From NCBI GenBank assembly GCA_965249105.1, contig OZ252219.1, forward strand, positions 1,173,914 to 1,237,913: a DNA stretch of 64,000 nt, read 5' to 3'. The notes under the pieces were generated by a model. The model made no database searches and was not told the DNA's origin. It saw only the letters and a list, made by a program, of their open reading frames with translations. This document shows, in pieces, positions 1,947-62,051 of the stretch. Each line of letters starts with the position of its first letter. The stretch's first letter is position 1. The position numbers and the translations under genes were made by a program. The DNA comes from Vicinamibacterales bacterium (GTDB lineage: Bacteria; Acidobacteriota; Vicinamibacteria; Vicinamibacterales; UBA8438).

Positions 1947-1978
1947 CTAAACCGTCTACGAAACTGGATCAAGCCCAT

Positions 1979-4686: not shown

Positions 4687-4738
4687 TGGGGTTCCTTAAT
4701 TGATAAGAGCACAGCTTTGTCCTTCCAGCCTCGACTGC

Positions 4739-7415: not shown

Positions 7416-7676
7416 TCACCGATTCGACGGCGGGTGACGCGCAGGCGAAACCTTCCCGCGGGCGGGGGTCGCGGGCGGGTACGGCGCTTCTCCGGCATAC
7501 CGCCTCGCTTCGGCAATCGGAATGCGGATGGTGCCACGGAGCCCGAACCGCCGGACCCGCAGTGCGCCGGCGTCGATCTCCTTGTAGATCATGCGTGTCG
7601 TGAGCCGGAGATACGCGGCCAGATCCGCCACCGTGACGAACGGCGCGTCATGCGTCCGCAAGTCGCGGACGGTCAT
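7416..7676 (-). CDS. excisionase-family (MerR/AlpA-like) HTH DNA-binding protein
   Basis: MTVRDLRTHDAPFVTVADLAAYLRLTTRMIYKEIDAGALRVRRFGLRGTIRIPIAEARRY. ATGA overlap with the terminase remnant stop. Confidence 0.6.
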   Translation of the reverse strand: MTVRDLRTHDAPFVTVADLAAYLRLTTRMIYKEIDAGALRVRRFGLRGTIRIPIAEARRYAGEAPYPPATPARGKVSPARHPPSNR

Positions 7677-8037
7677 CCGCCCTCCCGCGTGCGCGCGACC
7701 GAGGCCGCGCGGTACCCCAGCGCGACCGCCTCGAACGCCAGGGCCGCCGAGTCCGCCTGGTCGTCGTGCTTCGCCACCGGCACGCTGGCAGTTCCTCAAG
7801 CCACGCCTGATTCCACGCGCCCGTGAGCAGCCGCACGTTCCCCGCTTCGGCCTGCACGGCGAACGGCCGCCACCGCGTCGTCTTGGCCCCGGTGGCTGGC
7901 TGGCCTTGATAGTCGTAGCCGGCCAGCATTCGAGTGTGGCTGGCAATCACGTTCTTGCCGCTGTGCCCGCCTTCTTGCTCTTCCCGAATCCGCACACGCG
8001 GACCGTCCAGCTCGGCCGTCTGCCGAATCGCGAGCAG
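7673..8037 (-). pseudogene. phage terminase large subunit, C-terminal nuclease fragment (5'-truncated, frameshifted)
   Basis: LAIRQTAELDGPRVRIREEQEGGHSGKNVIASH...GNVRLLTGAWNQAWLEEL, then KHDDQADSAALAFEA in another frame. It ends exactly at the end of repeat copy A. Confidence 0.65.
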
Positions 8038-8617
8038 CGGAACATAATCCGCTGAGCTCGATCAAAAGTTTTAATCCGGGATAAGCCGGGATCATCCGGG
8101 ATGGCCCCGGGATGCGACTCGCGCGAGAACAACAACTTATCCTCCGATGCGGAGGTACCGACGCTGCCCGCCAAGACACTCCCCCTGAGCCGGTCAAGGA
8201 GTGTGAAGCGGGACATAGTAGGGACCCATCAAATATTCGTCGTTTATTCGCTTGACGACGTGCGAGACGGGTTCGCTCGAGACTGCCCCCACCGCCACCC
8301 AGTCTGGCTGATGCTCGCACTCCGGGATCGCTCGGGGGCGGCCCCCGAGTTTTTCTGTGGATGCCGGGCGATTTCGACGGTCGCGGGCGCGGCGCCGAGA
8401 AGACGAGACACGTCTGGAGCGAGGTGGCGCCGGTATGCGGGCGATCGTCTCGCGAGCCGGTTTCCGTGGTCCGGGTGGGGCGCACGTGAGAGCCTCCCGG
8501 GACACCTCTCCCACGGACGGCGGATCCGGCCTCGGCACGGCCCAATTCTGTCGCCCTCCCCGTCAGTCGTTGCGCCCGCGCGAGTCGCATCCCGGGGTCA
8601 TCCCGGGTTATCCCGGG
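8038..8617 (+). repeat. CCGGGAT-TIR element, copy A (main body; its right TIR is interrupted by an IS)
   Basis: Left end is cggaacataatccgctgagctcgatcaaaagttttaatccggg, followed by CCGGGAT at 8076, 8086, 8096 and 8107. Core is colinear with copy B (59202..59821). Confidence 0.85.
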
Positions 8618-8823
8618 AGGCACTTGCAAAACTCCTGGCCGACAGTGGAACAAGCGTCAGGGTTTGGGTGCAAACTGGTCACTCGGGCCCAGGGCACCGG
8701 GATCGAGGCACCGATTCATGAGGAGACGCAGGCCCGCCCGGGCATTGGGCGAGGGTCTGGCAAGAGCTGCCGCCTTCTGCGCGTAGGCAGCTGGGTGGAT
8801 CGAGGTCATCACGTCACCGATGG

Positions 8824-9963
8824 CTACGTGACGAGGCGCATGAGTTGGTCAGCGGTGAGTGCGAGCACGCCGAACATGCAGTGGCACATCACCTTCGCCG
8901 GGCCGCGGACCCGGACATGGCGACCGCCGAATTCGTCCTTGAGGCGGCCATTGACCCGCTCAACGGCCGTGCGTTCGTTGTAGCGAACGTCCTCCGGAAG
9001 CTGGAAGCCAAGCACCTGTCGGCGCCGAGCTTCCGCTTGGCGTTCTTCCTTCAGCGCCGTGTTGCGGCGCGTGTTGATGTCGATCAGCGGAACGTGGTTC
9101 AGCGAACGGCTGTGTGCCCGAATCTCCTGCGCATCGTAGGCGGCGTCCATCACGTCGTACAGATTGGTGCTCCGCTCGGCGGACAGGGTTGCGAGCGGAA
9201 TAGCGGCCTGGCTGTCATGAAGGGAGGCAGTGGTCAGTAGGCAGCTGATGGGGATCTGGCCATCGGCCACATCGATATGCAGCTTGTAGCCGACCCAGGT
9301 TTCCTTGTAGCCCTTGCTGTTCTTTTTCGTCCCGACATCGCAGGCCGTCGGGAGATCAGCGAGCATCTCCGGCTTGGTCATGGTGCCCTGCCGCTGCAGA
9401 CGCGTGGGCTCGTGAGGGCGCTCCTCTCCCTTCTTCGGTCGTCCCCGCTTCCGCTGCGAGGGCGCGGGCGGCTTGTCCTTCGTGGCGGGCTTCTCGCGTG
9501 CCGCAATCGCGGTGGAGTCTCGCGAGAGATGACCGACCAATCGGTCGTGATGCGTCTTCTGGATGACCGTCTCGTGCACGCGCAGAGGCAACTGCGTGGT
9601 CGCAAACTCGTCGAAGGCGTGTGAGAACAAGGATTCGCTCGGGACCTGGCGCCTAGTCTCCCAGCCGCAGATCCGGCGCAAGGGTCGATCGGTGGCCAGC
9701 CGATCGAGCAGCCTGCGTGTCGTCGGCAGGTCGTAGACGGCCTTGGCGACAAACGCGCGGGCGACGGCCGCGCGATCCTTGCGAGGTCGGCCGGGCATGC
9801 GGACGCGTCGGGGAATGTGGTCCTCGACCCGGATGACCTCCAAGGTCTGCACGAACTGCTGCTGTTTCTCCGTGAGTGGTCCCAGCTCTTCCTCCAGCCA
9901 TGGAAAGAGTGCGGTCTGAATGGACAGCCAGTGTGGTGCGAAGCACTCTCGGAGACGGCTCAT
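8824..9963 (-). CDS. DDE transposase, IS4/IS5 superfamily (IS1182-like), about 379 aa
   Basis: N-terminal DUF772-like region (GRPRKDRAAVARAFVAKAVYDLPTTRRLLDRL...RRICGW) and DDE core (GYKLHIDVADGQIPIS...DAAYDA). Start set at MSRLRE. Confidence 0.75.
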   Translation of the reverse strand: MSRLRECFAPHWLSIQTALFPWLEEELGPLTEKQQQFVQTLEVIRVEDHIPRRVRMPGRPRKDRAAVARAFVAKAVYDLPTTRRLLDRLATDRPLRRICGWETRRQVPSESLFSHAFDEFATTQLPLRVHETVIQKTHHDRLVGHLSRDSTAIAAREKPATKDKPPAPSQRKRGRPKKGEERPHEPTRLQRQGTMTKPEMLADLPTACDVGTKKNSKGYKETWVGYKLHIDVADGQIPISCLLTTASLHDSQAAIPLATLSAERSTNLYDVMDAAYDAQEIRAHSRSLNHVPLIDINTRRNTALKEERQAEARRRQVLGFQLPEDVRYNERTAVERVNGRLKDEFGGRHVRVRGPAKVMCHCMFGVLALTADQLMRLVT

Positions 9964-10026
9964 TTTCTTCTTGACTCCTGGGGCCAGGTCTAGCAGTATA
10001 ACAACTGCTAGACCGAATGGCACGAC

Positions 10027-10374
10027 ATGCCCACCCGTGACCCAACAACCGACACGCAGCGCTACGACGCGCTCAAGCGCACCGTCGCTGAGGTGGGATT
10101 GCTTCGACGTGGCAGCCTCGTGCAACGTTTCATGCCGTGCGGCAAGCCGAACTGCCGCTGCCAAGCGACGCCCCCGCAGCTACACGGGCCGTACTATCAG
10201 TGGACCCGCAAGGTCCGCGGCAAGACCGTCACCGTCCGTCTCACCGAGCAGCAAGCCGAGCGTGTCCGGGACTGGATCGAGAACGGCCGACAGCTAGACC
10301 GAATCGTTGTGGAAATGGAGACGTTGTCGCTGCGGATGACTGAGCGCCTGCTTCGTCAGCTCACGCCTGTGTGA
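10027..10374 (+). CDS. small Zn-ribbon-like protein (DUF6788-like), divergent from the transposase inside the IS
   Basis: CGKPNCRCQATPPQLHGPYYQWTRKVRGKTVTVRL. I recall this motif from transposase-adjacent genes; the family assignment is from memory. Confidence 0.5.
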   Translation: MPTRDPTTDTQRYDALKRTVAEVGLLRRGSLVQRFMPCGKPNCRCQATPPQLHGPYYQWTRKVRGKTVTVRLTEQQAERVRDWIENGRQLDRIVVEMETLSLRMTERLLRQLTPV

Positions 10375-10438
10375 TGTGGCCCGCACCGTGCGCAAGCCGC
10401 CAAAAAACTTCTCTACGCGCAGGGTTTTGCAAGTGCCT

Positions 10439-10479
10439 CCCGGGTTAAAACTTTTGTGACGATACGTGTGCCACCTCTG
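10439..10479 (+). repeat. CCGGGAT-TIR element copy A, displaced right terminus (Z-type end)
   Basis: cccgggttaaaacttttgtgacgatacgtgtgccacctctg is identical to 59781-59821 of copy B. Confidence 0.8.
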
Positions 10480-10768
10480 TGCGAAGCAGAACGGGTACGT
10501 CGAATCGTTCAACGGCAAGTTGCGGGATGAACTCCTCGACCGGGAGATCTTTTACACGCTGACGGAAGCCCAGATCTTGATCGAACGGTGGCGGCGGGAG
10601 TACAACACCGTGCGGCCCCACAGTGCACTGGGCTACCGCCCACCGGCGCCGGATGCGATCATGCCGGCTGCGCTCAGGAGCGTAGATGAGTCCAGCTCTC
10701 TCATAACAAGTGGTACAACCATGGGGGGCAGGTCACCACCCGCTCCGACTTCGCTTGACGGCTGTTGA
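10480..10768 (+). pseudogene. IS3-family (IS407-like) OrfB C-terminal fragment
   Basis: QNGYVESFNGKLRDELLDREIFYTLTEAQILIERWRREYNTVRPHSALGYRPPAP. It starts at the repeat end. Confidence 0.75.
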
Positions 10769-14349: not shown

Positions 14350-15781
14350 GAGTGTGAGCGAAACTTAGTTGGAAATTGAAGCGGCTCCAAACCCTGTGGT
14401 TTGATGACGTTTGAGAAGACGGACATCAGCCCACGAGAGAAAGGAGCCGAGATGAGCAGTGTCCTACGATCGGTCAGGAAGCGCAAGAAAGGTCACACGT
14501 TGGGCGCGGTCGACGTCATCGACCGAGAGGAGTACGCCGAGCTGGAGGTCGATGCCAAGGTGGCGTTGATCCGGTCGTTGGTTCCGCTGGGCTTGATGCA
14601 CATCGAGGAGTTGCTCGACGAGGAAGTGACCGCGCTGGCTGGCGAGCGCTACGCCCGCAAAGCCCCGTCAGTCGGCGGGCGCCGTCATGGCAGCAACCCC
14701 GGGACGGTCGGGTTGGCCGGCCAGCGCGTGCCGATTCGCGTGCCCCGGATTCGCCATGTCACGGAGCGCGAGATTCCCCTGCGGTCGTACGAGGCGCTGC
14801 ATGGCGATCGCGCCGTCAACGACCTGTTGCTGCGGCGCGTGCTGTATGGGATCTCGTGCCGCAACTACGCGGCGGCCGCCGAGGCGATTCCCAGGGCGAT
14901 CGGCCTATCGGGGTCGACGGTGTCCCGCGCGTTCATTCAGGCCAGCGCGACGAAACTCCGCGAGCTCCAGGAGCGGGACCTCTCCGGGGAGGACGTCGTG
15001 GCCCTCGTGCTGGACGGCAAGACGTTCGCCGAGGCGACGATGGTCGTCGCGCTGGGCATCACGATGACGGGGGACAAACGGTTCCTGGGCGTCGTCGAGA
15101 CGGACACGGAGACCGAGAAGGTGTTGACCCCGTTCCTCCGGTCATTGGTCGAGCGGGGCCTCGATGTCTCCCAGGGGCTTCTGGTGATCGTGGATGGCGG
15201 CAAGGGGCTCCGGGCGGCCGTGCGGAAAGCCTTCCGCCACCGCGCCCTGGTGCAACGGTGTCAGTGGCACACGCGCGAGAACGTGGTGAGTTACGTGGCC
15301 AAGCGTGAGCAGCCGGTGTGGCGGCAGCGTCTCCAGCGCGCCTACAACCGTCCGGAGTACGACGAGGCCCTCGCCGCCCTCAAGTCGCTCCAGCATGAGC
15401 TGGAGGATCGGAACCAATCCGCGGCCGGCAGTCTGGCGGAAGGCCTCGACGAGACCCTGACGTTGCATCGCCTCGGGGTGTACGGTGTGCTGGGCCGGTC
15501 GCTGAAGACGACGAACAGCCTCGAGTCCATCAACGCGCTCATTGAGGAGCGCTGTGCGAAGGTCGATCACTGGCAGCACTCGAGTCAACGCCATCGCTGG
15601 CTGGCCACTGCGCTCCTGGACATCGAGCCACGCCTGCGCAAGGTGAGGGGCTACCGGCACCTGCCCAGGCTTCGTGACGCATTGAAGCGAGAGCTGAAGA
15701 TCGACACGACGACGTCGACGAAGAAAGCCGCGTAAGCAATCAGGAGCCGCGGAGAGTTTCAACTAGGAATGGGCTTGACTC
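14350..15781 (+). mobile_element. IS256-family IS, copy 3 (1432 bp)
   Basis: Same ends. Flanks gcagtcgc and ggtatccg give no TSD. Confidence 0.9.
14452..15735 (+). CDS. IS256 family transposase
   Basis: Identical in protein to copy 2. Confidence 0.9.
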   Translation: MSSVLRSVRKRKKGHTLGAVDVIDREEYAELEVDAKVALIRSLVPLGLMHIEELLDEEVTALAGERYARKAPSVGGRRHGSNPGTVGLAGQRVPIRVPRIRHVTEREIPLRSYEALHGDRAVNDLLLRRVLYGISCRNYAAAAEAIPRAIGLSGSTVSRAFIQASATKLRELQERDLSGEDVVALVLDGKTFAEATMVVALGITMTGDKRFLGVVETDTETEKVLTPFLRSLVERGLDVSQGLLVIVDGGKGLRAAVRKAFRHRALVQRCQWHTRENVVSYVAKREQPVWRQRLQRAYNRPEYDEALAALKSLQHELEDRNQSAAGSLAEGLDETLTLHRLGVYGVLGRSLKTTNSLESINALIEERCAKVDHWQHSSQRHRWLATALLDIEPRLRKVRGYRHLPRLRDALKRELKIDTTTSTKKAA

Positions 15782-16055
15782 GGTATCCGATTCGACATGG
15801 GTGGGGATTATGGGGAATGACGCCTACGCCACGATGCCATGCACCGCCCCTCCAGACTCAGCGCGGGCACATCCACGTTCAACGCGGGCTCCCAGCAATA
15901 CTAACCCGGCGACGGGCGTGTCAAGGAACCCTCAATTTCCCCCGGTAAGATAAGGGGTAGATTGCTTGTAGTCACTTGATTAGAATGCTCTTCGTTTCCT
16001 CTTGAAACGAATATGGCATGTGAAGATGACTTTGAATGAGGAGTACGGGGTCCAG

Positions 16056-26520: not shown

Positions 26521-26783
26521 AGCTGACATCCCGGCAGCTCCCCCCCCGACCTCTTCCTCGCGCGAGGAGGCCACCGCCGCCGCCACGACCACCCTCGTCG
26601 CGCTCACGGCGCTCCCCCCAACCCGGACCACAGAACCGGGCTCGCGAGACGATCACGCGGACACCGGCCGCCACCTCGCCACAGGCGCGACTCACCTCCC
26701 CGGCGCCGCGCCCGTGACCGCTGAAATCGCCTGAATCCAACGAGGAAATCGGGGACGAACCTTCAGCGGGCGTCTCGGGTCAC
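26521..26783 (-). repeat. CCGGGAT-TIR element, core fragment (copy F)
   Basis: 26610-26745 aligns with 33398-33530 (ccggaccac.gaacc.ggctcgcgagacgatcacgcgg...ccgctgaaatcgcctgaatccaacgaggaaatcgggg). Confidence 0.7.
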
Positions 26784-26913
26784 GTCGATCAGAAGTTGTG
26801 ATCTCGGGACTTTACCGGGATCTACCGGGATAGCCGGGATGCCCGCGAGCGGCGCACGTCTCACTTGTTTCGGATAGTTCCGGAATATTTCGGATCAAAA
26901 CTTTCGATCGCGG
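26784..26913. repeat. Mini (TIR-only) derivative of the CCGGGAT-TIR family
   Basis: gtcgatcagaagttgtgatctcgggactttaccgggatctaccgggatagccgggatg faces its inverse ...cggatagttccggaatatttcggatcaaaactttcgatc. Confidence 0.6.
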
Positions 26914-27392: not shown

Positions 27393-27495
27393 CTCACGAA
27401 ACACGCTGGCCCAGCTGAGTTCCAGCAATCGGCGCCGTTTCGGTCCCAGATGTTCCCAGGGATCGAACAACGCACCACTCTGACGGTCGCGAAGA

Positions 27496-28945
27496 GCTTG
27501 GGTTCAAGGTGTCGTCGCAACACCGCGTTGTGTGATTGAGCATAGGTGATCGCCAAGTGCCTCCGCGGGTGTCTTCCAGCCGAGGGTCTTGCGGGGGCGA
27601 CTGTTGAGAGCAGCAGCAACGGCGTCAAGATCATCACGAGAGTGTCTGGACAGGTCGGTGCCTTTGGGAAAGTACTGCCGCAGCAGGCCGTTGGTGTTCT
27701 CGTTCGTGCCGCGTTGCCAGGGGCTGTGTGGGTCGCAGAAGTAGATTGGCAGACCGGTGTCGATTCGGAGTTGAACGTGTTGAGCCATCTCGGCGCCTTG
27801 GTCCCATGTCAGTGAACGGCGAAGCTGCGTGGGCAGCGTGATGATCGACGACGCGATGGCGTCTCGGACGGCCTCGGCACCATGCCCCGCCAGGGCGGGA
27901 CCGTTCTTGATCCGAGGCTGCCCATAGTCATCCATGCGAGGCAGATGCAGCAGCCTCGTGAATCGGCTGGTGCGTTCCACGAGGGTCCCAATCGCAGAGC
28001 TCCCCAGTCCGACAATCAGGTCACCTTCCCAGTGTCCTGGGACCGCCCGATCGTCTGCTTCGGCGGGGCGCTTGCTGATCATGAGTTCGGCAGTGACGAA
28101 CGCCTTGCCGCGTCCTCGTGTCCGTGCTCTTGGCACGCGCAGCGCCCGGCCGGTCCGCAAGCACGCCACCAGGTCGCGTCGCAGTGCCCCTCGTCCCTGC
28201 ACGTAGAGCGCCTGGTAGATGGCCTCGTGGGAGATCCGCATCGACTCCTCATCGGGGAAGTCGACCTTGAGTCTGTTGGCAATTTGCTCAGGACTCCATG
28301 ACGCCGCCCAGCGTCGGTCTTGACGGCGCCCGGGGCGGCGACCGTTCCAGTGCACATGGGGACCAGGCACCCTCGTCCCGTCGGCGGCCGTAATCCTGCC
28401 GGCGAGTCGGTCTTGCACGTACCGGCGCAGTTCGTCGTGTGCAGCGAGCTTCGCCACCTGCGGTCTTTTCGCCTTCAGGTCGGCGTGCCACTGCGCGGTC
28501 GTCGCGCGATACTCGAGTCCGCCACTGCGGGTTGCCGCATTGCGACGGAGCTCCCGAGAGATGGTCGACGGGGACCGGCTGATTCGCCGAGCGATATCAC
28601 GAACCCCGCAGTGCTGGGCGTGCAAGATGGCGATCTCGTCTCGTTCGGCAAACGACAGGTAGCGCCCCGACAGAGGGGCCAGGCTGATCGGCGGCATGCC
28701 TCCACTTTCGCGGAACCATCTCGTTCCGACCGGCTGGGACACGCCGGCCCCCAGCGCCGCCTCTTCGCTGGACAACCCGCAGGCGATCGCCTCCCAGAAC
28801 CGACGCCGATGCTCACGGCGTCCCGCCGTGGGACGACCCGGCGACCGCATCGGAAGACGTCCCGCACGGGGTGACCGACGACGTTTCGGTGTTCCCATCG
28901 CAACTCCTCACCGTTGAGGTGTTGCGACGACCGTTTGAATCTACC
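27496..28945 (-). mobile_element. IS30-family IS, copy 2
   Basis: Same IRs as copy 1. 3-bp direct repeat gag at 27493-27495 and 28946-28948. Confidence 0.85.
27504..28898 (-). CDS. IS30 family transposase
   Basis: 464 aa, differing from 269..1663 at a handful of residues. Confidence 0.9.
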   Translation of the reverse strand: MGTPKRRRSPRAGRLPMRSPGRPTAGRREHRRRFWEAIACGLSSEEAALGAGVSQPVGTRWFRESGGMPPISLAPLSGRYLSFAERDEIAILHAQHCGVRDIARRISRSPSTISRELRRNAATRSGGLEYRATTAQWHADLKAKRPQVAKLAAHDELRRYVQDRLAGRITAADGTRVPGPHVHWNGRRPGRRQDRRWAASWSPEQIANRLKVDFPDEESMRISHEAIYQALYVQGRGALRRDLVACLRTGRALRVPRARTRGRGKAFVTAELMISKRPAEADDRAVPGHWEGDLIVGLGSSAIGTLVERTSRFTRLLHLPRMDDYGQPRIKNGPALAGHGAEAVRDAIASSIITLPTQLRRSLTWDQGAEMAQHVQLRIDTGLPIYFCDPHSPWQRGTNENTNGLLRQYFPKGTDLSRHSRDDLDAVAAALNSRPRKTLGWKTPAEALGDHLCSITQRGVATTP

Positions 28946-30491: not shown

Positions 30492-30520
30492 CGTCGCGCC
30501 ACGTGGCGACCCGCCAGTGC

Positions 30521-30590
30521 CGTCGATCAAGAGTTTCGATCCGGGACATTCCGGGACTATCCGGGATCCATCCCGGTATCCGTCGGCATC
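30521..30590. repeat. CCGGGAT-TIR family, solo TIR-like fragment
   Basis: gtcgatcaagagtttcgatccgggacattccgggactatccgggatccatcccggtatccg. Confidence 0.55.
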
Positions 30591-30623
30591 CTTAATTCAT
30601 AGGATCAGTACGCGTCGGCGCGA

Positions 30624-31187
30624 TCACGTGCGCCGTGCCGATGTTGACGCTGGCCACGTGAGCGCGAGCAAGCCCGGAGCCCAGGCCAGCGCCCACATCG
30701 CAAACTGCAGCAGGTAGTTTCGACCCTCCGCAGGCGGCCGTCCCCAGAGGACGTTGCGGACCAGCGCGAACGCGATGCTAGCGGCGACAGCGGCCACGAC
30801 ACCTCGCGTCGCGACCTCCTTCCAGTCCCGTCGATTCGGTGCCCGCAGCCATCGTCCGTCAAGGGCGGCTAACAGGAACCACATGATCACCCAGGCGCCT
30901 GGGATCGCCGTGCCGTAGGTACGTGAATCCATCACGACGATGAGGAAGTAGTAGCTGAGGGCCCCGCCAAGGCCGGCCAGCGTACCGAGCGGAAGCCCCT
31001 TGACGAGGCCGCCGCCGGCCGCGCCGATCGCGCCGCCTACGGCAGTCAGCAGCAGCGCCCCGTGCACCAGACCGGCAACCATGGTGTGCCGCACTCCCAC
31101 GGTGTACCAGATGAAGTCGCCGAGGGTTGCAGCGGCGGCGACGACGACGATACCGGCAACAATGGTCATGTCAAGCCCCATCCTCAA
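30624..31187 (-). CDS. hypothetical integral membrane protein
   Basis: About 5-6 hydrophobic helices. No motif recognised. Confidence 0.5.
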   Translation of the reverse strand: MRMGLDMTIVAGIVVVAAAATLGDFIWYTVGVRHTMVAGLVHGALLLTAVGGAIGAAGGGLVKGLPLGTLAGLGGALSYYFLIVVMDSRTYGTAIPGAWVIMWFLLAALDGRWLRAPNRRDWKEVATRGVVAAVAASIAFALVRNVLWGRPPAEGRNYLLQFAMWALAWAPGLLALTWPASTSARRT

Positions 31188-31380
31188 GCTCGCGTGGGAT
31201 TATGGCTGCCAGCGCGCTGACCTGGGGCCTGTTCTTCCTGGCGACCCCCTGGGCGCGTTGTTCCTGGGCACCGCCGAGACGCCATTGGCGCGGTTCCAGA
31301 TGGCACTCGCATTTGGAGTCCCTGCCTTGCCGGACTTGGTACTGGTCGCCGTCATTCTTCTAGCGTAAGCGGGGGAGCCC

Positions 31381-31482
31381 ATGCCAAGCTATCGCAGTCT
31401 AAACCACACGAAGTGGGCCTGTCAGTATCACGTGGTGTTCATCCCCAAGTATCGGAAGAAAGTCATCTACGGAACCGCCTAA
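31381..31482 (+). pseudogene. IS200/IS605-family TnpA (Y1 HUH transposase), N-terminal 33-codon fragment
   Basis: MPSYRSLNHTKWACQYHVVFIPKYRKKVIYG. It is followed by the hairpin ggaaccgc-N5-gcggttcc. Confidence 0.6.
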
Positions 31483-31723
31483 CGCGGTTCCGCTCCATCC
31501 GCGGGCCCATCCATGACACAGGTCAACCGCCACACAGGTAGTGGCGGACCAGATCGCCGGGGCCGACGCTGCCGAGATCGACGCCGGCGAGGAGGAAAGC
31601 GCCCGGACTGAGCTCTATTGACCCGATTCCCGGACGGTCCCTCTCGGTCGGCGAATGTTCGAGTGAGGGCTCCGCCGGTTTAGGTCCACTCGGAGCGTGA
31701 GACTGCGCCCGGTCGTGGCCGCG

Positions 31724-31855
31724 CATCCCGTTTATCCCGCCTAGTCCCGCAAGATCCCGGATCAAGACTTTTGATCGCGCACATCCGCGTCTTCTTGCTC
31801 TACTTATCCCGAGGTTATCCCGGGTTTCAAAACTTCTGATCGAGGTCAGCCGCCC
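31724..31855. repeat. Two tandem degenerate TIR-like modules of the CCGGGAT-TIR family
   Basis: catcccgtttatcccgcctagtcccgcaagatcccggatcaagacttttgatcgcg and ttatcccgaggttatcccgggtttcaaaacttctgatcgagg. Confidence 0.55.
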
Positions 31856-32117
31856 TGGGGGAACACTGGAAGTTGACCCGACCCGAGCGGGCACTCAACT
31901 CAGCCCCGGCTCCGAATTGAACGACGCGAAACGGTTGGTGGCGTTCTTGCGCTGAAGGCGATCTATGGAATCGGCCATGCGTTCGTCGATGGAGGTCATG
32001 GCACTCCCTAGCTAGATGTCTCCATCCCTTTCTTCTGCCGACCTCACAGCGGCGATGATCAGGGCGTTCGGAAACTCCCGCAATCCTTCATGACGGGCGG
32101 CGTTCAATTTCGCGATC

Positions 32118-32591: not shown

Positions 32592-32790
32592 ACAACCCGA
32601 ACGGAGGGTGGAAGGGTCGCGGCTTGTGGGCGACGTACGGTGACGCGGTGACCTGGCACATCGAAGGGGGGGTGGGCGTCAAGCCGGGCCTCCTGAAGTT
32701 CCAGGTCCGTCCGGATCCCCTCGCCAACTGAGCGGTCGTTAGTTAGTTCGCCGTCACTCCTTCAGGCCGTTGCGAAGCGCCGGGAGTTCG

Positions 32791-33854
32791 TTTTAATCCG
32801 GGATAAGCCGGGATCATCCGGGATGACCCCGGGATGCGACTCTCGCGGTCGCAACGACGTACGGGGACGCGGCGGCCCCAGCGGGGGGCGGTGGGCCGGG
32901 TGCGGCTCTACAACGTCACCGACGATGCAGTCGTCGATGGCCCCCAGTCAGGTGGTGCTGGGTGGGCGGAAGGTCGCGATCCGGCGGCCGCGCGGCCGCC
33001 GCGACGGCGCAGGAGCTGCGGATCCAGCGTGGCGCGTTGCGCTCGACGACGAGGCGTTCGTCGTCGATGCCCGGGTCGGTGTACGGTCGGTCGTGCAGCC
33101 CGGCGTGGATCACGCGCACCAGCTTGTGGGCGGTGGCCAGGATCCATCCCGGTAGCCGACGCTCTGTGGGCGCAACGACTGACGCCGAGTCCAGCGCCGG
33201 GACGCCACGTTGCACCTGCCGGTGCAGGTCCACGCGCGCCGCGCGTCATGGTCAGTTTCTGTGCCGTGGGCTCGGCCGCCGCGCCGCGAGAAGTTCTTGC
33301 AGCGGCATATTCCGGGACTTGCCGGGCTCCATCCCGGAATCCGACGCTCCGCGGACCCGACGACTGACAGGGGTCAGTCGTACATGGCTCTCTCAAAACC
33401 CCGGACCACCGAACCTGGCTCGCGAGACGATCACGCGGACCCCGGCCGCCACCTCGCCCCCGGCGCGACTCACCTCCCCGGCGCCGCGCCCGTAACCGCT
33501 GAAATCGCCTGAATCCAACGAGGAAATCGGGGGCACCCCTCGAGCGATCCCGAAGTGCGAGCATCGGCAGGACTGGGTGGCGGTGGGGGCAGTCTCGAGC
33601 GAATCCGTCTCGCACGTCGACAAGCGAATAAAAGACGAATATTTGAAGGGTCCCTACTATGTCCCGCTTCAAACTCCTTGACCGGCTCAGGGGGAGTGTC
33701 TTGGCGGGCAACGTCGGTACCTCCGCATCGGAGGATAAGTTGTTGTCCTCGCGCGAGTCGCATCCCCGGGGTCATCCCAAGAGTCGCATCCCGGGGTCAT
33801 CCCGGATTATCCCGGCTTATCCCGGATTAAAACTTGGGTCATGCCTAGCTGAGC
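32791..33854 (-). repeat. CCGGGAT-TIR element, copy D (1064 bp, longest; carries an IS110-like remnant)
   Basis: Both TIRs are present. The core is colinear with A, B and C. Extra DNA sits between two right-end-like modules. There is a partial internal duplication of the left TIR (gagtcgcatcccggggtcatccc, twice). Confidence 0.85.
33022..33144 (-). pseudogene. IS110-family transposase, C-terminal remnant
   Basis: ILATAHKLVRVIHAGLHDRPYTDPGIDDERLVVERNAPRWI resembles the conserved IS110 Tnp tail (A.KL..II...L..G..Y......NAPRW). Confidence 0.55.
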
Positions 33855-34349
33855 CTCTCTGAACGTTCCGACCTGGTACCCCGCCGATCTGAAAATGGCC
33901 GATTGCGTCGAGGTTGGCTTTGACCGTCTCTGCCAGGCACCCTTCCATGATCTGCATATGGTAGAAGTCGTACTGCAGTAACACATTGTCGGTGCCAACC
34001 TGATGAATGATCCTCTGGGCCTGCGCGCTCCGCGTCAGAAAATAGCCCGGATTGTCCCGAGTGTTGAGTGGCTCGATGAGGAGGCGCACGCCAAGCGGTC
34101 TCGCCTGCTCGGACGCCCACTGCACGTTGGATACAAAGGTACCCTCGGCTCGCGTGTCGTCGGTCTTGCCAGCCAGGCAGTGCAGTTGACGGCAACCAGT
34201 AGCCTCGGCGTACTCGAGCGCCCGCGTGACGTCCTGTTCGAATTCAGCCTCCTGTCCGGGAATGGCACCGACGGCTGTCGGCAGGTTGAACAGCACCGGG
34301 GTCAAGTCGTGACACCTGAGGCGGTCGGCGATGTCTTCCGGTGCGGTAT
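33855..34349 (-). pseudogene. hyi: hydroxypyruvate isomerase (xylose-isomerase-like TIM barrel), truncated at both ends
   Basis: LTPVLFNLP...GQEAEFEQDVTRALEYAEATGC..LHCLAGK...LLIEPLNTRDNPGYFL...LLQYDFYHMQIMEG...IGHFQIGGVPGRN. Both ends stop at repeat termini. Confidence 0.75.
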
Positions 34350-34533
34350 CGGAACATAATCCGCTGAGCTCGATCAAAAGTTTTAATCCGGGATAAGCCG
34401 GGATAATCCGGGATGACCCCGGGATGCGACTCGCGCGAGGACAACAACTTATCCTCCGATGCGGAGGTACCGACGCTGCCCGCCAAGACACTCCCCCTGA
34501 GCCGGTCAAGGAGTTTGAAGCGGGACATAGTAG
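34350..34533 (+). repeat. CCGGGAT-TIR element, left-end-only fragment (copy E)
   Basis: X-type end plus TIR plus the first ~115 bp of the core, breaking at gcgggacatagtag. Confidence 0.8.
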
Positions 34534-38599: not shown

Positions 38600-38713
38600 C
38601 TGGAGCGCGCACAGTGAGGTCGATCAAAAGTTTTGATCCGGGATAAGCCGGGATCATCCGGGATGACCCTGGGATGCGACTCTCGCGGTCGCAACGACGT
38701 ACGGGGACGCGGC
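38600..38713 (-). repeat. CCGGGAT-TIR element, right-end-only fragment (copy G, V-type end)
   Basis: ctggagcgcgcacagtgaggtcgatcaaaagttttgatccggg plus the TIR plus gtcgcaacgacgtacggggacgcggc, as in C and D. Confidence 0.8.
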
Positions 38714-38863: not shown

Positions 38864-39245
38864 TCACGCTCGCGCGTCCACACCACCGACGCCAGGCTGG
38901 GACGCCTCGCCTGGGTGTCCACGCGGCTCTCCATCATGACCGGAGGGAGACGCGAACCCCAGCCGCGCCCGCTGCGCAACCCAGGCCACCGGCAGGCGGG
39001 TGTCGTGCATGAGCGTGGTGGCCGTCAGCGCGGCCGGCTGCCGGCCTTCGACGATGGCGGCGACGATGTCCGGGGCCAGGTAGCGCAGCCGCAGCAGGCG
39101 GGTGACATACGAGGCGGACACCTGCTCGGCCGCCGCGATTTGGGGCAGCGTGCGCGCGGGAGGCTGCGTCAGCCGATCATGGATCGTGACGGCACGCCCC
39201 AGCAGCCGGATCAGGCACGGGTCCGCGTGGGTGTGGGTGGCGAAT
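38864..39245 (-). pseudogene. C-terminal DNA-binding fragment resembling serine-recombinase-family proteins (catalytic domain absent)
   Basis: LPQIAAAEQVSASYVTRLLRLRYLAPDIVAAIVEGRQPAALTATTLMHDTRLPVAWVAQRARLGF. I recall this motif from recombinase-family proteins; the assignment is from memory only. Confidence 0.35.
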
Positions 39246-53873: not shown

Positions 53874-55305
53874 GAGTCAAGCCCATTCCTAGTTGAAACT
53901 CTCCGCGGCTCCTGATTGCTTACGCGGCTTTCTTCGTCGACGTCGTCGTGTCGATCTTCAGCTCTCGCTTCAATGCGTCACGAAGCCTGGGCAGGTGCCG
54001 GTAGCCCATCACCTTGCGCAGGCGTGGCTCGATGTCCAGGAGCGCAGTGGCCAGCCAGCGATGGCGTTGACTCGAGTTCTGCCAGTGATCGACCTTCGCA
54101 CAGCGCTCCTCAATGAGCGCGTTGATGGACTCGAGGCTGTTCGTCGTCTTCAGCGACCGGCCCAGCACACCGTACACCCCGAGGCGATGCAACGTCAGGG
54201 TCTCGTCGAGGCCTTCCGCCAGACTGCCGGCCGCGGATTGGTTCCGATCCTCCAGCTCATGCTGGAGCGACTTGAGGGCGGCGAGGGCCTCGTCGTACTC
54301 CGGACGGTTGTAGGCGCGCTGGAGACGCTGCCGCCACACCGGCTGCTCACGCTTGGCCACGTAACTCACCACGTTCTCGCGCTTGTGCCACTGACACCGT
54401 TGCACCAGGGCGCGGTGGCGGAAGGCTTTCCGCACGGCCGCCCGGAGCCCCTTGCCGCCATCCACGATCACCAGAAGCCCCTGGGAGACATCGAGGCCCC
54501 GCTCGACCAATGACCGGAGGAACGGGGTCAACACCTTCTCGGTCTCCGTGTCCGTCTCGACGACGCCCAGGAACCGTTTGTCCCCCGTCATCGTGATGCC
54601 GAGGGCGACGACCATCGTCGCCTCGGCGAACGTCTTGCCGTCCAGCACGAGGGCCACGACGTCCTCCCCGGAGAGGTCCCGCTCCTGGAGCTCGCGGAGT
54701 TTCGTCGCGCTGGCCTGAATGAACGCGCGGGACACCGTCGACCCCGATAGGCCGATCGCCCTGGGAATCGCCTCGGCGGCCGCCGCGTAGTTGCGGCACG
54801 AGATCCCATACAGCACGCGCCTCAGCAACAGGTCGTTGACTGCGCGATCGCCATGCAGCGCCTCGTACGACCGCAGGGGAATCTCGCGCTCCGTGACATG
54901 GCGAATCCGGGGCACGCGAATCGGCACGCGCTGGCCGGCCAACCCGACCGTCCCGGGGTTGCTGCCATGACGGCGCCCGCCGACTGACGGGGCTTTGCGG
55001 GCGTAGCGCTCGCCAGCCAGCGCGGTCACTTCCTCGTCGAGCAACTCCTCGATGTGCATCAAGCCCAGCGGAACCAACGACCGGATCAACGCCACCTTGG
55101 CATCGACCTCCAGCTCGGCGTACTCCTCGCGGTCGATGACGTCGACCGCGCCCAACGTGTGACCTTTCTTGCGCTTCCTGACCGACCGTAGGACACTGCT
55201 CATCTCGGCTCCTTTCTCTCGTGGCGTGATGTCCGTCTTCTCAAACGTCATCAAACCACAGGGTTTGGAGCCGCTTCAATTTCCAACTAAGTTTCGCTCA
55301 CACTC
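53874..55305 (-). mobile_element. IS256-family IS, copy 4 (1432 bp)
   Basis: 8-bp TSD ccatgggg at 53866-53873 and 55306-55313. The TSD includes the soxR start codon. Confidence 0.9.
53920..55203 (-). CDS. IS256 family transposase
   Basis: Near-identical to the other three copies. Confidence 0.9.
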   Translation of the reverse strand: MSSVLRSVRKRKKGHTLGAVDVIDREEYAELEVDAKVALIRSLVPLGLMHIEELLDEEVTALAGERYARKAPSVGGRRHGSNPGTVGLAGQRVPIRVPRIRHVTEREIPLRSYEALHGDRAVNDLLLRRVLYGISCRNYAAAAEAIPRAIGLSGSTVSRAFIQASATKLRELQERDLSGEDVVALVLDGKTFAEATMVVALGITMTGDKRFLGVVETDTETEKVLTPFLRSLVERGLDVSQGLLVIVDGGKGLRAAVRKAFRHRALVQRCQWHKRENVVSYVAKREQPVWRQRLQRAYNRPEYDEALAALKSLQHELEDRNQSAAGSLAEGLDETLTLHRLGVYGVLGRSLKTTNSLESINALIEERCAKVDHWQNSSQRHRWLATALLDIEPRLRKVMGYRHLPRLRDALKRELKIDTTTSTKKAA

Positions 55306-55430: not shown

Positions 55431-55471
55431 CGGATTAAAACTTTTGATCGACCTCACTGTGCGCGCTCCAG
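55431..55471. repeat. Solo V-type end of the CCGGGAT-TIR family
   Basis: cggattaaaacttttgatcgacctcactgtgcgcgctccag. Its outer 31 bp (55441-55471) are the reverse complement of the V adaptor at 38600-38630. Confidence 0.7.
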
Positions 55472-58880: not shown

Positions 58881-58992
58881 CCGGAGAAGCTGTCGTGGTG
58901 TCTGGCAGGCGGAGAGAACCAGGACTGACCCGACCCCCTGAGACCGTTCCAGCCCGAGCGGTAGAATTCGGGCGCAACGACTGGGAGGCAGG

Positions 58993-59130
58993 ATGCCGAG
59001 AAAGCGCTACAGCACAGAACAGATTGTCACGAAGCTCCGGCAGGCTGAGGTGGAGTTGAGCCGAGGTCTCCGGACGCCACAGGTCTGCAAGAAGCTCGGC
59101 GTCAGCGAGCAGACGTACTACCGGTGGCGG
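58993..59130 (+). pseudogene. IS3-family OrfA, N-terminal HTH fragment
   Basis: MPRKRYSTEQIVTKLRQAEVELSRGLRTPQVCKKLGVSEQTYYRWR, then loss of similarity before repeat copy B. Confidence 0.7.
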
Positions 59131-59201
59131 ACTTGGCCTTGCCTCGCGGATCAGAAATGTATCCACATTCGTGCAGTCGAGTCCGTGTCCGGTGACGGCC
59201 G

Positions 59202-59821
59202 GCTAGGCATGACCCAAGTTTTAATCCGGGATATTCCGGGATCATCCGGGATGACCCCGGGATGCGACTCGCGCGAGGACAACAACTTATCCTCCGATGC
59301 GGAGGTACCGACGCGGCCCGCCAAGACACTCCCCCTGAGCCGGTCAAGGAGTGTGAAGCGGGACATAGTAGGGACCCATCAAACATTCGTCTTTTATTCG
59401 CTTGCAGACGTGCGAGACGGGTTCGCGCGAGACTGCCCCCACCGCCACCCAGTCTTGCCGATGCTCGCACTTCGGGATCGCTCGAGGGTTGCCCCCGATT
59501 TCCTCGTTGGATTCAGGCGATTTCAGCGGTCGCGGGCGCGGCGCCGAGAAGACGAGACACGTCTGGAGCGAGGTGGCGCCGGTATGCGGGCGATCGTCTC
59601 GCGGGCCGGTTTCCGTGGTCCGGGTGGGGCGCACGTGAGAGCCTCCCGGGACACCCCTCACACGGACGGCGGATCGGGCCTCGGCACGGCCCAATTCTGT
59701 CGCCCTCCCCGTCAATCGTTGCGCCCGCGCGAGTCGCATCCCGGGGTCATCCCGGGTTATCCCGGGTTATCCCGGATTATCCCGGGTTAAAACTTTTGTG
59801 ACGATACGTGTGCCACCTCTG
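59202..59821 (+). repeat. CCGGGAT-TIR element, copy B (620 bp, uninterrupted; best reference copy)
   Basis: The left TIR has 4 CCGGGAT units and the right TIR has 5 ATCCCGG units at 10-bp spacing. Y-type left end and Z-type right end. No credible ORF. Confidence 0.9.
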
Positions 59822-60089
59822 AGTTCCTTCCTCCAGTGGAGAAGTCCGGAACAGTGAGGTCATGGTGAACGCTTCCGCGACTACGCGTGTCACTGTCGCT
59901 GGCGCCCACCCGCAATTGAAAGTCTCCACTGGGCAGCTGAAGCTGAGTCACTACTCGCAGGCCGTCCCGACGGACTGAGGAAGGAAGTAGGATGCGCCGC
60001 CCCTCTCGAACCTGACCGTTCCTGTCGGCGCTGATTGACAAACGGCCGTCGATTGTCCAGGAAGAGCTGGGTCCCTGACTCGGAAACAT
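59822..60089 (-). pseudogene. hypothetical protein fragment, 3'-truncated at the repeat end (possibly the C-terminal region of an acidobacterial VWA-type protein)
   Basis: LQLPSGDFQLRVGASDSDTRSRGSVHHDLTVPDF. Weak resemblance only. Confidence 0.25.
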
Positions 60090-60320
60090 CAGGCCGGTCG
60101 TCCGCGATTCATGTGCGATCGTTGACGTGCGCGGGGCTCTCTGTCGGGCACCGCGACCGGTCTATGCCCGCATTCGTCGCCAGAATCTGCTGCGGGGTAG
60201 CCGACCACCAAACGAACGCCGGTCGTGTTGACGCCCGAGAACGCCACCACAACAGTGCCGGCGCTATGCACGCGTACAGGGTTCAGGTCCGGAATCCGTA
60301 CCAGAGCGCCGTCCGGATCG

Positions 60321-60527
60321 TCAGCTTCCCTCGGCCCGCACCGTTCTTCGGAGGAATCGGTAGAGGACCATGTACCCTGCACCCTGGAATCCCGCCTGCG
60401 TGCCGATCCACAGGCCAAAGCTACGGTCGTAGAGCAGCACCGTGAGCAGGATCACGCCCAGGGCGATGATGGCGACGCCAAAGAGGAATCGGACGGGCGC
60501 CCTTCGAATCGTGCTGAACGGTTCCAT
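60321..60527 (-). CDS. small hypothetical membrane protein (68 aa)
   Basis: AAGGAG lies 9 nt upstream of the ATG. TM segment FLFGVAIIALGVILLTVLLY. GC3 is elevated. Confidence 0.35.
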   Translation of the reverse strand: MEPFSTIRRAPVRFLFGVAIIALGVILLTVLLYDRSFGLWIGTQAGFQGAGYMVLYRFLRRTVRAEGS

Positions 60528-60704
60528 TTGTCCAGGCTCCTTCCGCGATGCCGGCAATCATTCGTAGTCCGCGGCCGCCAGCGACGCGCGGATAATCTCT
60601 TGATCGTTGCGGTGGACGATGTGCCGGTTGGCGTAGGCAGGATGTGACCAGTTCACGATGCGGTCATAGTGTACCGCACCCGGTTCCTTGGACACACATT
60701 TGAG

Positions 60705-61255
60705 TTATGCGGCCGGGCGTAGCTCGTACGCCTCGCGCGCCTCGATCGGCGTCTGATAGCCTAGCTTCTCGAGACGCCAGCTCTCGTTGTACCGTGCGAC
60801 GAAGTCGGCGACCGCCGCCCGCACCTCCTCGAGGTTCTGAAAGACGCGACCGTAGATCGCCTGCTCCTTGAGCGTGCGGTTCCATCGTTCCGCGACGCCG
60901 TTGGTCTCGGGCTCCTCGATGAAGGTGAAGCTGGGGTGGATGCCCAGGTACCGGATCTGCTTCAGGAAGTGGTCCGAGAGGTACTGGCTGCCGTGGTCGA
61001 GCCGCAGTGCCAGCCCGCGAGCGACGTCAGCCTCCACCGAGCCGTACATCTGGCAAAGGCCTTGCGCAATGGGTTCCAAGGCCGCGAAGCGGCTCCCGAC
61101 TTTACACACGTGCCACCCCACGCACTCGGCGTTCCAGTGGTCAACCGCCGCGAAGGTCCAGACCCAGCCGTCGTCCACGGTGAACACCCGCACGCCGTCG
61201 GTGCCGACCTCGACATCGACGAGAGCACTCTCTCTAAGCAGGCGAGCAACACCTA
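60705..61255 (-). pseudogene. rve-domain DDE transposase (IS3-like OrfB), 5'-truncated
   Basis: DGWVWTFAAVDHWNAECVGWHV...LRLDHGSQYLSDHF...PETNGVAERWNRTLKEQ...YNESWRLEKLGYQTPIEAR. Confidence 0.75.
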
Positions 61256-61313
61256 CTACCGCCTAGGCATCGCTGGTTCTCGGCCGTCGAGCGTAGATCG
61301 CTCTTCCGGTCAC

Positions 61314-62051
61314 GCTCAGCTAGGCATGACCCAAGTTTTAATCCGGGATAAGCCGGGATCATCCGGGATGACCCTGGGATGCGACTCGCGCGGTCGCAAC
61401 GACGTACGGGGACGCGGCGGCCCCAGCGGGGCGCGTGGCGCTCGACGACGAGGCGTTCGTCGTCGATGCCCGGGTCGGTGTACGGTCGGTCGTGCAGCCC
61501 GGCGTGGATCACGCGCACCAGCTTGTGGGCGGTGGCAAGGATCCATCCCGGAATCCGACGCGCCGTGGACCCGACGACTGACAGGGGTCAGTCGTACATG
61601 GTTCTCTCAAAACCCCGGACCACCGAACCTGGCTCGCGAGACGATCACGCGGCCACCGGCCGCCACCTTGCCCCAGGCGCGACTCAGCTCCCCGGCACCG
61701 CGCCCGTAACCGCTGAAATCGCCTGAATCCAACGAGGAAATCGAGGGCAAGCCTCGAGCGATCCCGAAGTGCGAGCATCGGCAGGACTGGGTGGCGGTGG
61801 GGGCAGTCTCGCGCGAACCCGTCTCGCACGTCGACAAGCGAATAAAAGACGAATATTGGATGGGTCCCTACTATGTCCCGCTTCACACTCCTTGACCGGC
61901 TCAGGGGGAGTGTCTTGGCGGGCAACGTCGGTACCTCCGCATCGGAGGAGAAGTTGTTGTCCTCGCGCGAGTCGCATCCCGGGGTCATCCCGGATGATCC
62001 CGGCTTATCCCGGATTAAAACTTTTGATCGAGCTCAGCGGATTATGTTCCG
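61314..62051 (-). repeat. CCGGGAT-TIR element, copy C (738 bp, with a short IS110-like remnant)
   Basis: Y-type end on the right-TIR side and X-type end on the left-TIR side. The core is colinear with D. It lacks about 150 bp present in D. Confidence 0.85.
61431..61543 (-). pseudogene. IS110-family transposase C-terminal remnant
   Basis: AHKLVRVIHAGLHDRPYTDPGIDDERLVVERHAPRW, the same remnant as in copy D. Confidence 0.5.

Follow-up and report, generated by a model that had tools for sequence, protein, structure and literature searches.

Bacterial MITEs (miniature inverted-repeat transposable elements), such as the Correia, RUP and Nezha elements and the Tn3-derived TIMEs, are short, non-coding and multicopy, have inverted ends, lack a transposase of their own and often lie in or near other mobile elements; most have been traced to a parent insertion sequence (IS) via short, simple inverted repeats. 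Here we describe a family of repeats that shares these general features, found in a 64,000-nucleotide stretch of a Vicinamibacterales genome (GenBank assembly GCA_965249105.1, contig OZ252219.1, positions 1,173,914 to 1,237,913; hereafter "the window", numbered from its first letter). Whereas MITEs end in simple repeats of 20–40 bp, the family has compound ends of ~100 bp, in which phased arrays of the heptamer CCGGGAT stand behind tips that vary. It also differs from MITEs in that a target-site duplication (TSD) is not demonstrable, no parent IS is known, and its copies, at 0.6–1.1 kb, lie at or above the usual MITE size. We favour, with moderate confidence, the reading that these are non-autonomous transposable elements with terminal inverted repeats (TIRs), MITE-like but larger. 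The MITE characters found in the family are shared TIRs, small size, a lack of coding capacity and dispersal with unrelated flanks.

Several better-known systems share parts of this design. Tn7, Mu, Tn402/Tn5053 and IS21 carry several transposase-binding repeats per end, in unequal number at the two ends, and a first-pass annotation of the window had linked the family to transposases of these types. This link holds as an analogy only: in those elements the sites are 19–22 bp long and irregularly spaced, the termini are 5'-TG, and the TSD is a fixed 5 bp (Tn7/Mu/Tn402 type) or 4–8 bp (IS21), whereas the family has a 7-bp core every 10–11 bp, tips that begin with C and no visible TSD, and the IS21 elements nested with it have unrelated ends. 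IS200/IS605 and IS91 elements have subterminal hairpins and no inverted ends; the family, in contrast, has long inverted ends, and an end folded as single-stranded DNA shows no unusual fold (z = −0.39). In hAT, CACTA (En/Spm) and P elements, many 6–12-bp transposase sites lie within 100–250 bp of the termini in opposite orientation, and non-autonomous derivatives retain only the subterminal-repeat regions. These elements are eukaryotic and, unlike the family, have defined short terminal repeats and TSDs of 8 bp or 3 bp; we know of no hAT/CACTA/P-type transposase in bacteria. Finally, the attP arm sites of lambda, L5 and HP1 and the coupling sequences of Tn916 recall the family in having phased repeats on two arms, an internal copy of a tRNA 3' end, a genuine tRNA gene adjoined by part of a copy, and junctions without a TSD, whereas the family has mirror-image arms, occupies many non-tRNA sites and is bounded by its tips, and an integrase was not found. 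By analogy, the layout of the ends appears closer to hAT/CACTA/P subterminal repeats or integrase arm sites than to the ends of Tn7, Mu, Tn402 and IS21.

Compound ends with phased heptamer arrays

Reading inwards, every end has the same order of parts: a variable tip of 22–26 nt, a 17-bp near-palindrome, GATCAAAAGTTTTRATC, three to five copies of CCGGGAT and an inner box, making up ~100 bp in all. At up to two mismatches, GATCAAAAGTTTTRATC matches the window 16 times (0.00 expected), and CCGGGATNNNCCGGGAT, which comprises two CCGGGAT units 10 bp apart, matches 22 times at up to one mismatch (0.06 expected). The spacing of heptamers within arrays is 10 bp in 21 cases, 11 bp in eight and 9 bp in one; with 29 of 30 spacings at 10 or 11 bp, all units would lie on the same face of the helix, and the phasing at about one helical turn that had been claimed for the arrays is borne out. 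The inner box reads GCGACTC..CGCGGGCGCAACGAC..CGGGGA or, in its fuller form, GCGACTC(G/T)CGCG(G/A)G.(G/A)CAAC(G/A)AC..CGGGGA. The conserved sequence gcgactcgcgcg stands behind the array, where the first-pass annotation had placed it. The 14-mer GGGCGCAACGACTG of the inner box was also found at 33168–33181 and at 58970–58983 of the window, in the latter case within an IS3-family orfA leader, where a TAGAAT box stands on one side of it and a GGGAGG ribosome-binding site on the other.

The tips are of several alternative types, beginning with CGGAACATAATCC.. (T1), CTGGAGCGCGCAC.. (T1b), CAGAGAGGCTCAGC.. (T2a), CGGTGACGG.. (T2b) and CTCAGAGGTGGCAC.. (T3); in longer form these are CGGAACATAATCCGCTGAGCTC, CTGGAGCGCGCACAGTGAGGTC, CAGAGAGGCTCAGCTAGGCATGACCC, CGGTGACGGCC.. 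and CTCAGAGGTGGCACACGTATCGTCAC, respectively. Further types are T4, T5 and T6, the last of which was met once only. Each of T1–T5 meets at least two unrelated flanks at one sharp boundary, with most for T1 (five) and T1b (ten). When 44 distinct ends were aligned, the information was found to reside in AAAGTTTT, the heptamers, TGCGACTC and CAAC.AC, with almost none in the tips; the first base of every tip type is C, and tips start with CG, CT or CA. They also pair freely, as T1/T3 in copy A, T2b/T3 in copy B and T2b/T1 in copy C. The homology extends 22–26 nt past the terminus previously assigned, so the true ends lie ~25 nt further out. The long inverted repeats seen in the first pass are real, while their length is ~100 bp rather than ~68 bp and their tips are not constant.

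The arrays vary in two further respects. Ends with 97% identity elsewhere carry 3, 4 or 5 units, as in the right ends of copies A and B, which have three and five; both copies have four units on the left, as had been counted before. In relatives, the whole array has moved to a variant unit (CCGARAT/GYGAGAC or CCGGAAC) with the palindrome and inner box unchanged. Such units include CCGAAAT/GCGAGAC in L098 and L097 (loci and contigs outside the window carry L numbers), CCGGAAC in L098 and CCGGGAC at 30541 of the window. Judged from these sequences, the arrays behave as putative protein-binding sites, in a pattern that would fit the cooperative loading of one protein on each end.

Copies and solo ends in the window

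The window holds four full copies (0.6–1.1 kb; 634–1075 bp) and at least six solo or decayed ends, with a summed length of ~4.9 kb, or 7.7% of the window. A profile hidden Markov model (HMM) of the family end gave 14 matches at E < 1e-4, repeat finding connected all copies through inverted arms of 62–94 nt at 85–97% identity, and the motif was present at every locus listed in the first pass.

Copy B (59190–59823, + strand) is a full element of 634 bp with a T2b tip on the left and a T3 tip on the right, and is 92.6% identical to copy A across 607 nt. Its left compound end (59190–59286, +) consists of the tip (59190–59215), AAGTTTTAAT, four CCGGGAT units at 59226, 59236, 59246 and 59257 (array 59226–59263), followed by GCGACTCGCGCG, and the inner box GCGACTCGCGCGAGGACAACAAC (59264–59286). 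Its right compound end (59714–59823, −) consists of the inner box, five ATCCCGG units (59738–59785), TTAAAACTTTTGTG and a T3 tip ending at 59823. Copy A (8038–8616, +) comprises a T1 tip, left end, interior and three right-array units, and is split within its right array by an IS5-family element (8617–10437); the remainder of its right end, with the T3 tip, lies at 10438–10481 (−). Copy C (61307–62051, +; 745 bp) has a T2b tip on the left and a T1 tip on the right, and over the right-hand 363 nt it matches, in reverse complement, the left module of copy B (93%). Copy D (32787–33861, +; ~1.07 kb), of a long type, is without its left tip, has a T2a tip on the right and contains an older, decayed end internally, near 33140–33180.

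The remaining loci are partial. A solo left end with a T1 tip and 184 nt (34350–34533, +) abuts a truncated phage-capsid-like open reading frame (ORF); a second solo left end carries a T1b tip (38600–38713, +); and a 40-nt remnant with a T1b tip and palindrome (55432–55471, −) lies at the junction of a rearrangement, where a condensation-domain gene is cut short. An old, decayed relative (30503–31863, +) has a left end at 30525, with CCGGGAC/CCGGGAT units, facing tandem right ends at 31760 and 31823, and its interior is unrelated to those of the other copies. Two decayed, mutually facing ends (26785–26911, no strand assigned) lie beside a fragment of the shared interior at 26547–26846.

Interiors are non-coding mosaics

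All full copies share a left module of 410 nt, which may lie in either orientation and has differing right modules attached: the copies are mosaics, in which interiors have been exchanged as modules and only the ~100-bp ends are retained throughout. Interiors lack both coding capacity and structure. Five ORFs were tested within window copies, and none has a Pfam domain; their homologues in the protein database are Arg/Pro-rich apparent artefacts, with domains only where they run into adjoining genes. Across copies A, B and E and the copy in L115, synonymous and non-synonymous changes stand at ~1:3 in all six frames, as expected under neutrality. These results agree with the earlier statement that full copies have no credible ORF. 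The conserved left interior shows no unusual fold as RNA (z = −0.8 and −1.1), and there was no match in Rfam 15 at the gathering score, only a weak hit to EFASI on the left end (21 bits, where the cut-off is 51 bits; E = 0.12).

The family is dispersed among soil Acidobacteriota

To the 14 ends in the window, the end HMM added 44 more from ~270 kb of further ENA soil-metagenome contigs, bringing the number to 58 over ~330 kb. The contigs, allelic and related, come from ENA assembly ERZ26167216 and other ENA assemblies, and at least 14 besides the window bear the family (L079, L080, L084, L095–L103, L115 and L117). A pattern scan for three phased heptamers, run on one genome per species, returned 78 loci, among which three from Vicinamibacterales metagenome-assembled genomes (MAGs) are true relatives: L002 and L006, from two MAGs, and the more distant L028. 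The family is dispersed, with unrelated flanks, and is not a local duplication: besides occurring on other contigs and MAGs, it interrupts genes of other elements, all of which upholds its earlier description as a dispersed non-coding family. Its hosts appear to be a clade of soil Acidobacteriota close to Vicinamibacterales, and the gene content of the window is in keeping with that phylum. Searches of JGI metagenomes, IMG/VR and PLSDB plasmids gave chance matches or nothing, and no account of such ends was found in the literature searched. That the family is undescribed, as first proposed, stands with respect to Rfam (at the gathering score), PLSDB, IMG/VR and this literature, ISfinder and Dfam having been outside the comparison.

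The other loci returned by the pattern scan were rejected as relatives, being mostly plain 10-bp microsatellites from Actinobacteria and other groups. High-GC genomes, those of Actinobacteria among them, commonly hold perfect CCGGGATNNN microsatellites with 3 to over 15 units (for example L004, L029, L008 and L071), which explains why scans for phased heptamers mostly yield unrelated simple repeats. Verrucomicrobia repeats containing CCGGGATATT were likewise not accepted as relatives: they stand in arrays whose 10-bp units are otherwise of another kind (GTTTCAC), located between housekeeping genes, and their kinship is unproven. In a Verrucomicrobiia MAG these non-coding repeats (L062, 3200–3560; L023, 3360–3490; L068, 2930–3130) contain several arrays of 10-bp units, with GTTTCACCTT three or four times at intervals of 143 bp and a final CCGGGATATT three times, and lie, for example, between gatB and a sulfatase gene. 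A sequence similar to GGGCGCAACGACTG, CGCGGGCGCCAACGAC, follows the CCGGGATATT arrays in Verrucomicrobia MAG loci L023, L047, L062 and L068.

Copies interrupt genes and nest with insertion sequences

Copies of the family are found within the genes of other elements. Copy A interrupts the C-terminal part of an IS3-family orfB, whose reading (..QNGYVESFNGK..) resumes immediately past the T3 tip at 10481; a second IS3 orfB is also cut by a family end, as is an IS30-type transposase gene with an intact relative in L103. In addition, an AhpC gene that is intact in L080 meets a T1 tip in L079. Conversely, family copies have been struck by IS5 (in the array of copy A), by IS21 (inside a copy or at its tip), and by IS3 and IS1595 elements, and the full set of nesting partners comprises IS3, IS5, IS21, IS30, IS256 and IS1595 elements. 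Between copies B and C, 2.7 kb of DNA is inverted relative to an allelic contig of the same metagenome (window 59265–62023 against L079 12745–15503, 99.2% identity), which looks like recombination between the inverted 363-nt modules that the two copies share.

Such exchange raises the alternative that the repeat is a non-mobile regulatory or structural module, for example an array bound by a host protein, that was spread by recombination within an IS-rich island. The readiness with which copies recombine, the many solo ends and the mosaic interiors would be consistent with this, as would the second occurrence of GGGCGCAACGACTG in the IS3 orfA leader at 58970 and the phased 10-bp arrays, including CCGGGATATT, in non-coding repeats of the Verrucomicrobia MAG. 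We nevertheless hold this explanation to be very improbable: the tips form sharp, recurrent boundaries, each with many unrelated flanks; copies lie within the coding sequences of other elements and of the AhpC gene; their position relative to host genes is inconsistent; and a regulatory site needs no mirror-image ends.

Resident insertion sequences as candidate partners

Scans of 40 ORFs with Pfam and NCBIfam found no transposase in the window that pairs with the family ends, in line with the first pass, which had seen none of the multi-site types there. The transposases present belong to IS30, IS256, IS5 and IS3 elements, each with ends of its own. Elements found in contact with family copies elsewhere were considered in turn. 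IS21 was rejected: one copy is nested in a family copy in L079 and another lies at a tip in L080, and the IstA/IstB pairs of both are accompanied by their own multi-repeat ends, TGTCAAGGGCGGAGCAAAA.. (TGTCAA..). IS3 was rejected too. Although orfB fragments lie just inside two right ends, IS3 inverted repeats (..GGTCA, ..GGTACA) intervene and end before the element sequence resumes, as expected of mutual nestings.

IS1595 elements required closer attention, as the family might be a MITE mobilised by a resident IS1595-family (Merlin-like) transposase. Elements of this group lie in or beside arrays at four loci, L028, L084 (~10390), L097 and L098/L099. In L028, a Zn-ribbon/DDE_Tnp_IS1595 gene ends directly beside a CCGGGAT array (~7640–7705), while the element in L097 (9575–10640) lies within an array and that in L098 (8751–9720) lies ~15 nt outside a tip and has its own TSD. 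The inverted repeats of the group contain TTTAACCGGA and start with CTGGGG, to be compared with TTTAAYCCGGGA in the family and with CTGGAG at the T1b tip, and the group makes TSDs of 8 bp, which recalls an imperfect 8-bp duplication at copy A. The similarity of the ends, however, is short, and its distance from the tip differs. Ten clean copies define this widespread IS1595 group as a compact IS of 1.1 kb, complete in itself, with the inverted repeat CTGGGGTATCCATTTAACCGG (21–30 bp), which does not match the family ends, and its own 8-bp TSDs; these are separate insertions. Moreover, TTCGGGGA, AGCCCCGA, AGTCCGGA and further target sites of IS1595 are similar to the heptamer, an indication of a target preference; this similarity alone accounts for the association of the group with the arrays. 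Mobilisation by IS1595 accordingly seems to us improbable.

Two further genes were set aside as candidates. In L102/L103 (2095–5480), a T1b left half-copy faces a T3-like right half-copy across 3.35 kb containing a 115-aa ORF and a gene for a 726-aa RecD2-like helicase; this may be a version of the element with cargo, or else a pair of truncated copies that have nothing to do with each other. A short coiled-coil ORF, here "gene X", adjoins an end in L097, and a fragment of it lies beside a copy interior in L117. Neither the recD2-like helicase nor gene X resembles a transposase, and both loci are mosaics.

No clean duplication, variable tips and a tRNA-Ser link

Several results weigh against reading the family as non-autonomous TIR elements. 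The first concerns the enzyme: the longer copy with the same TIRs and a transposase, which the first-pass annotation had proposed looking for, was not found in ~390 kb of family-bearing sequence, and the 81 protein-database matches to an ORF that reads across both ends were element copies or fusions with neighbouring genes, with no transposase among them. The second concerns the target. Comparison with allelic contigs and paralogous IS copies gave no clean TSD, most loci being rearranged or ambiguous, and the tabulation of flanks suggested in the first pass did not reveal one. Copy A is flanked by GCGAGCAG before the T1 tip and CGAAGCAG past the T3 tip, which match at 5/8 positions; judged by intact IS3 copies, the target appears to be the 8-bp CGAAKCAG, the left side having additional bases. 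The one intact copy in a quieter context, in L115 (7938–8560), has no duplication at its tips. Furthermore, 4–8 unmatched nt (e.g. ATCC, TCCCGG, AAGGCCC) separate the target homology from the tip at three junctions with an intact target paralogue and at one T1 tip. Third, tips that differ as these do, with only the first C shared, are unusual for DDE elements, in which the last bases are normally conserved.

The fourth point is a link to tRNA-Ser. The interior of each copy holds, always in the same place, the decayed T-arm and acceptor end of a tRNA (GGGTTCG..CCGCCA); in copy B, alignment places this fragment, GGGTTCG...CCGCCA, at 59419–59447 (+). In all copies the sequence GGGTTCG..CCGCCACCCAGTC.. 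matches the end of tRNA-Ser together with the DNA immediately downstream, and the interior of copy B from 59419 rightward matches the DNA downstream of genuine tRNA-Ser(GGA) genes. Such genes were found in L095/L096 and L097 in a conserved recR-ybaB-dnaX context, preceded by what we take, on reading by eye rather than by a run against Rfam, to be the signal recognition particle RNA gene (ffs). From the last bases of the tRNA on, each is followed by the right half of a family copy (tRNA at 5895–5987 and half copy at 5988–6572 in L095; ~8340–8700 in L097). This half is of C type in L095/L096, running through the array and tip in L095, and of A type in L097, so that two subfamilies occupy the tRNA-Ser locus in two haplotypes. 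Read as sequence, the internal tRNA-Ser fragment and the half copies at tRNA-Ser genes would point toward site-specific recombination. Alternatively, a transposon may have captured the region adjacent to tRNA-Ser and later exchanged sequence with it.

On a site-specific model, the family would be a miniature integrative element or mobilised attP region, moved by a tyrosine (or serine) recombinase. The inverted arrays would be arm-type sites, the tRNA-Ser fragment would be the core that recombines with tRNA-Ser(GGA), and the odd nucleotides at junctions would be coupling sequences, as in Tn916-type elements. This model is kept alive mainly because the arrangement at tRNA-Ser, with its 3' end in all copies and right halves of two subfamilies abutting the genes, resembles the attP and attL of an integrative element. 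The failure to find a TSD and the 4–8 unmatched nt are also in keeping with it, and phased direct repeats in opposite orientation on two arms would, by analogy, be a lambda- or L5-type layout. On the other side, the family ends are near-perfect mirror images over ~100 bp, including palindrome and inner box, whereas the arms of attP sites are usually asymmetric. Dispersed copies have the tips as their boundaries and are not opened at a central core, and ~200–350 bp separate the arrays from the putative core, a long way for arm sites. In addition, neither an integrase gene nor a second core (attR) was present within the 5–8 kb read downstream of the tRNA at L095 and L096 (~2.7 kb at L097, up to the end of the contig). 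We regard the recombinase model as unlikely, although it is the chief competitor of the preferred reading.

A possible mechanism and its significance

For the preferred reading, a non-autonomous element with TIRs, the following mechanism may be proposed. A DNA-binding protein, most likely a DDE transposase, would be supplied in trans, and several copies of it would load side by side on the phased heptamers of both ends. The two ends would then pair, and the DNA would be cut outside the palindrome, at a set distance from it. What the sequences show is the architecture and number of copies, their spread among unrelated flanks and into other IS genes, the missing coding capacity and the shifts in unit sequence and number; that a protein binds, which enzyme it is and whether the family is active today are points that we infer. 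It is also possible, though we would not expect it, that the enzyme is one not yet linked to such ends: a tyrosine or serine recombinase that has heptamer arm sites and also integrates at tRNA-Ser(GGA), which would make the family a miniature integrative element with the appearance of a MITE, or an undescribed hAT/CACTA-like bacterial transposase that cuts at a measured distance regardless of the tip.

Whichever enzyme is responsible, the ends are compound phased arrays, in contrast to the short, simple inverted repeats by which most bacterial MITEs have been traced to a parent IS. A variable number of units and shifts of a whole array from one unit to another are what one would expect if several molecules of a protein load cooperatively, a pattern more familiar in large transposons and in eukaryotic elements. 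In soil Acidobacteria, which are abundant but poorly studied, several percent of IS-rich regions consist of this family, which appears to drive inversions there and to attract the insertion of other ISs. Discovery of the enzyme would either give a known transposase family a new kind of end or reveal a recombinase route to MITE-like repeats, and the link to tRNA-Ser offers a concrete place to seek it.

Genomic context of the window

The window is a nest of ISs. It contains two IS30-family elements (222–1683 and 27484–28945), inverted relative to one another and 99% identical; four IS256/Mutator-family elements (~1978–3408, 4738–6170, 14350–15782 and 53874–55305) at 99–100% identity; one IS5-family element, that which splits copy A at 8617–10437; and IS3 fragments at 58924–59135, 60705–61193 and 10482–10740. 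An allelic contig, L116, joins position 15781 of the window, at the edge of an IS256 copy, to position 39231 via 3.4 kb of other genes. L116 therefore lacks all of the 23 kb, densely filled with ISs and family copies, that lies between these points in the window, a large structural difference between strains. A match to the Rfam group II intron RF00029 (23375–23451, −; 46.7 bits, above the gathering score) sits between a BlaR1/M56-like gene and the ORFs that follow it. Other genes of the window include those for MacB/FtsX, OMP_b-brl_4 and DUF1552/DUF1592 proteins and for pyrroloquinoline quinone (PQQ) dehydrogenases.

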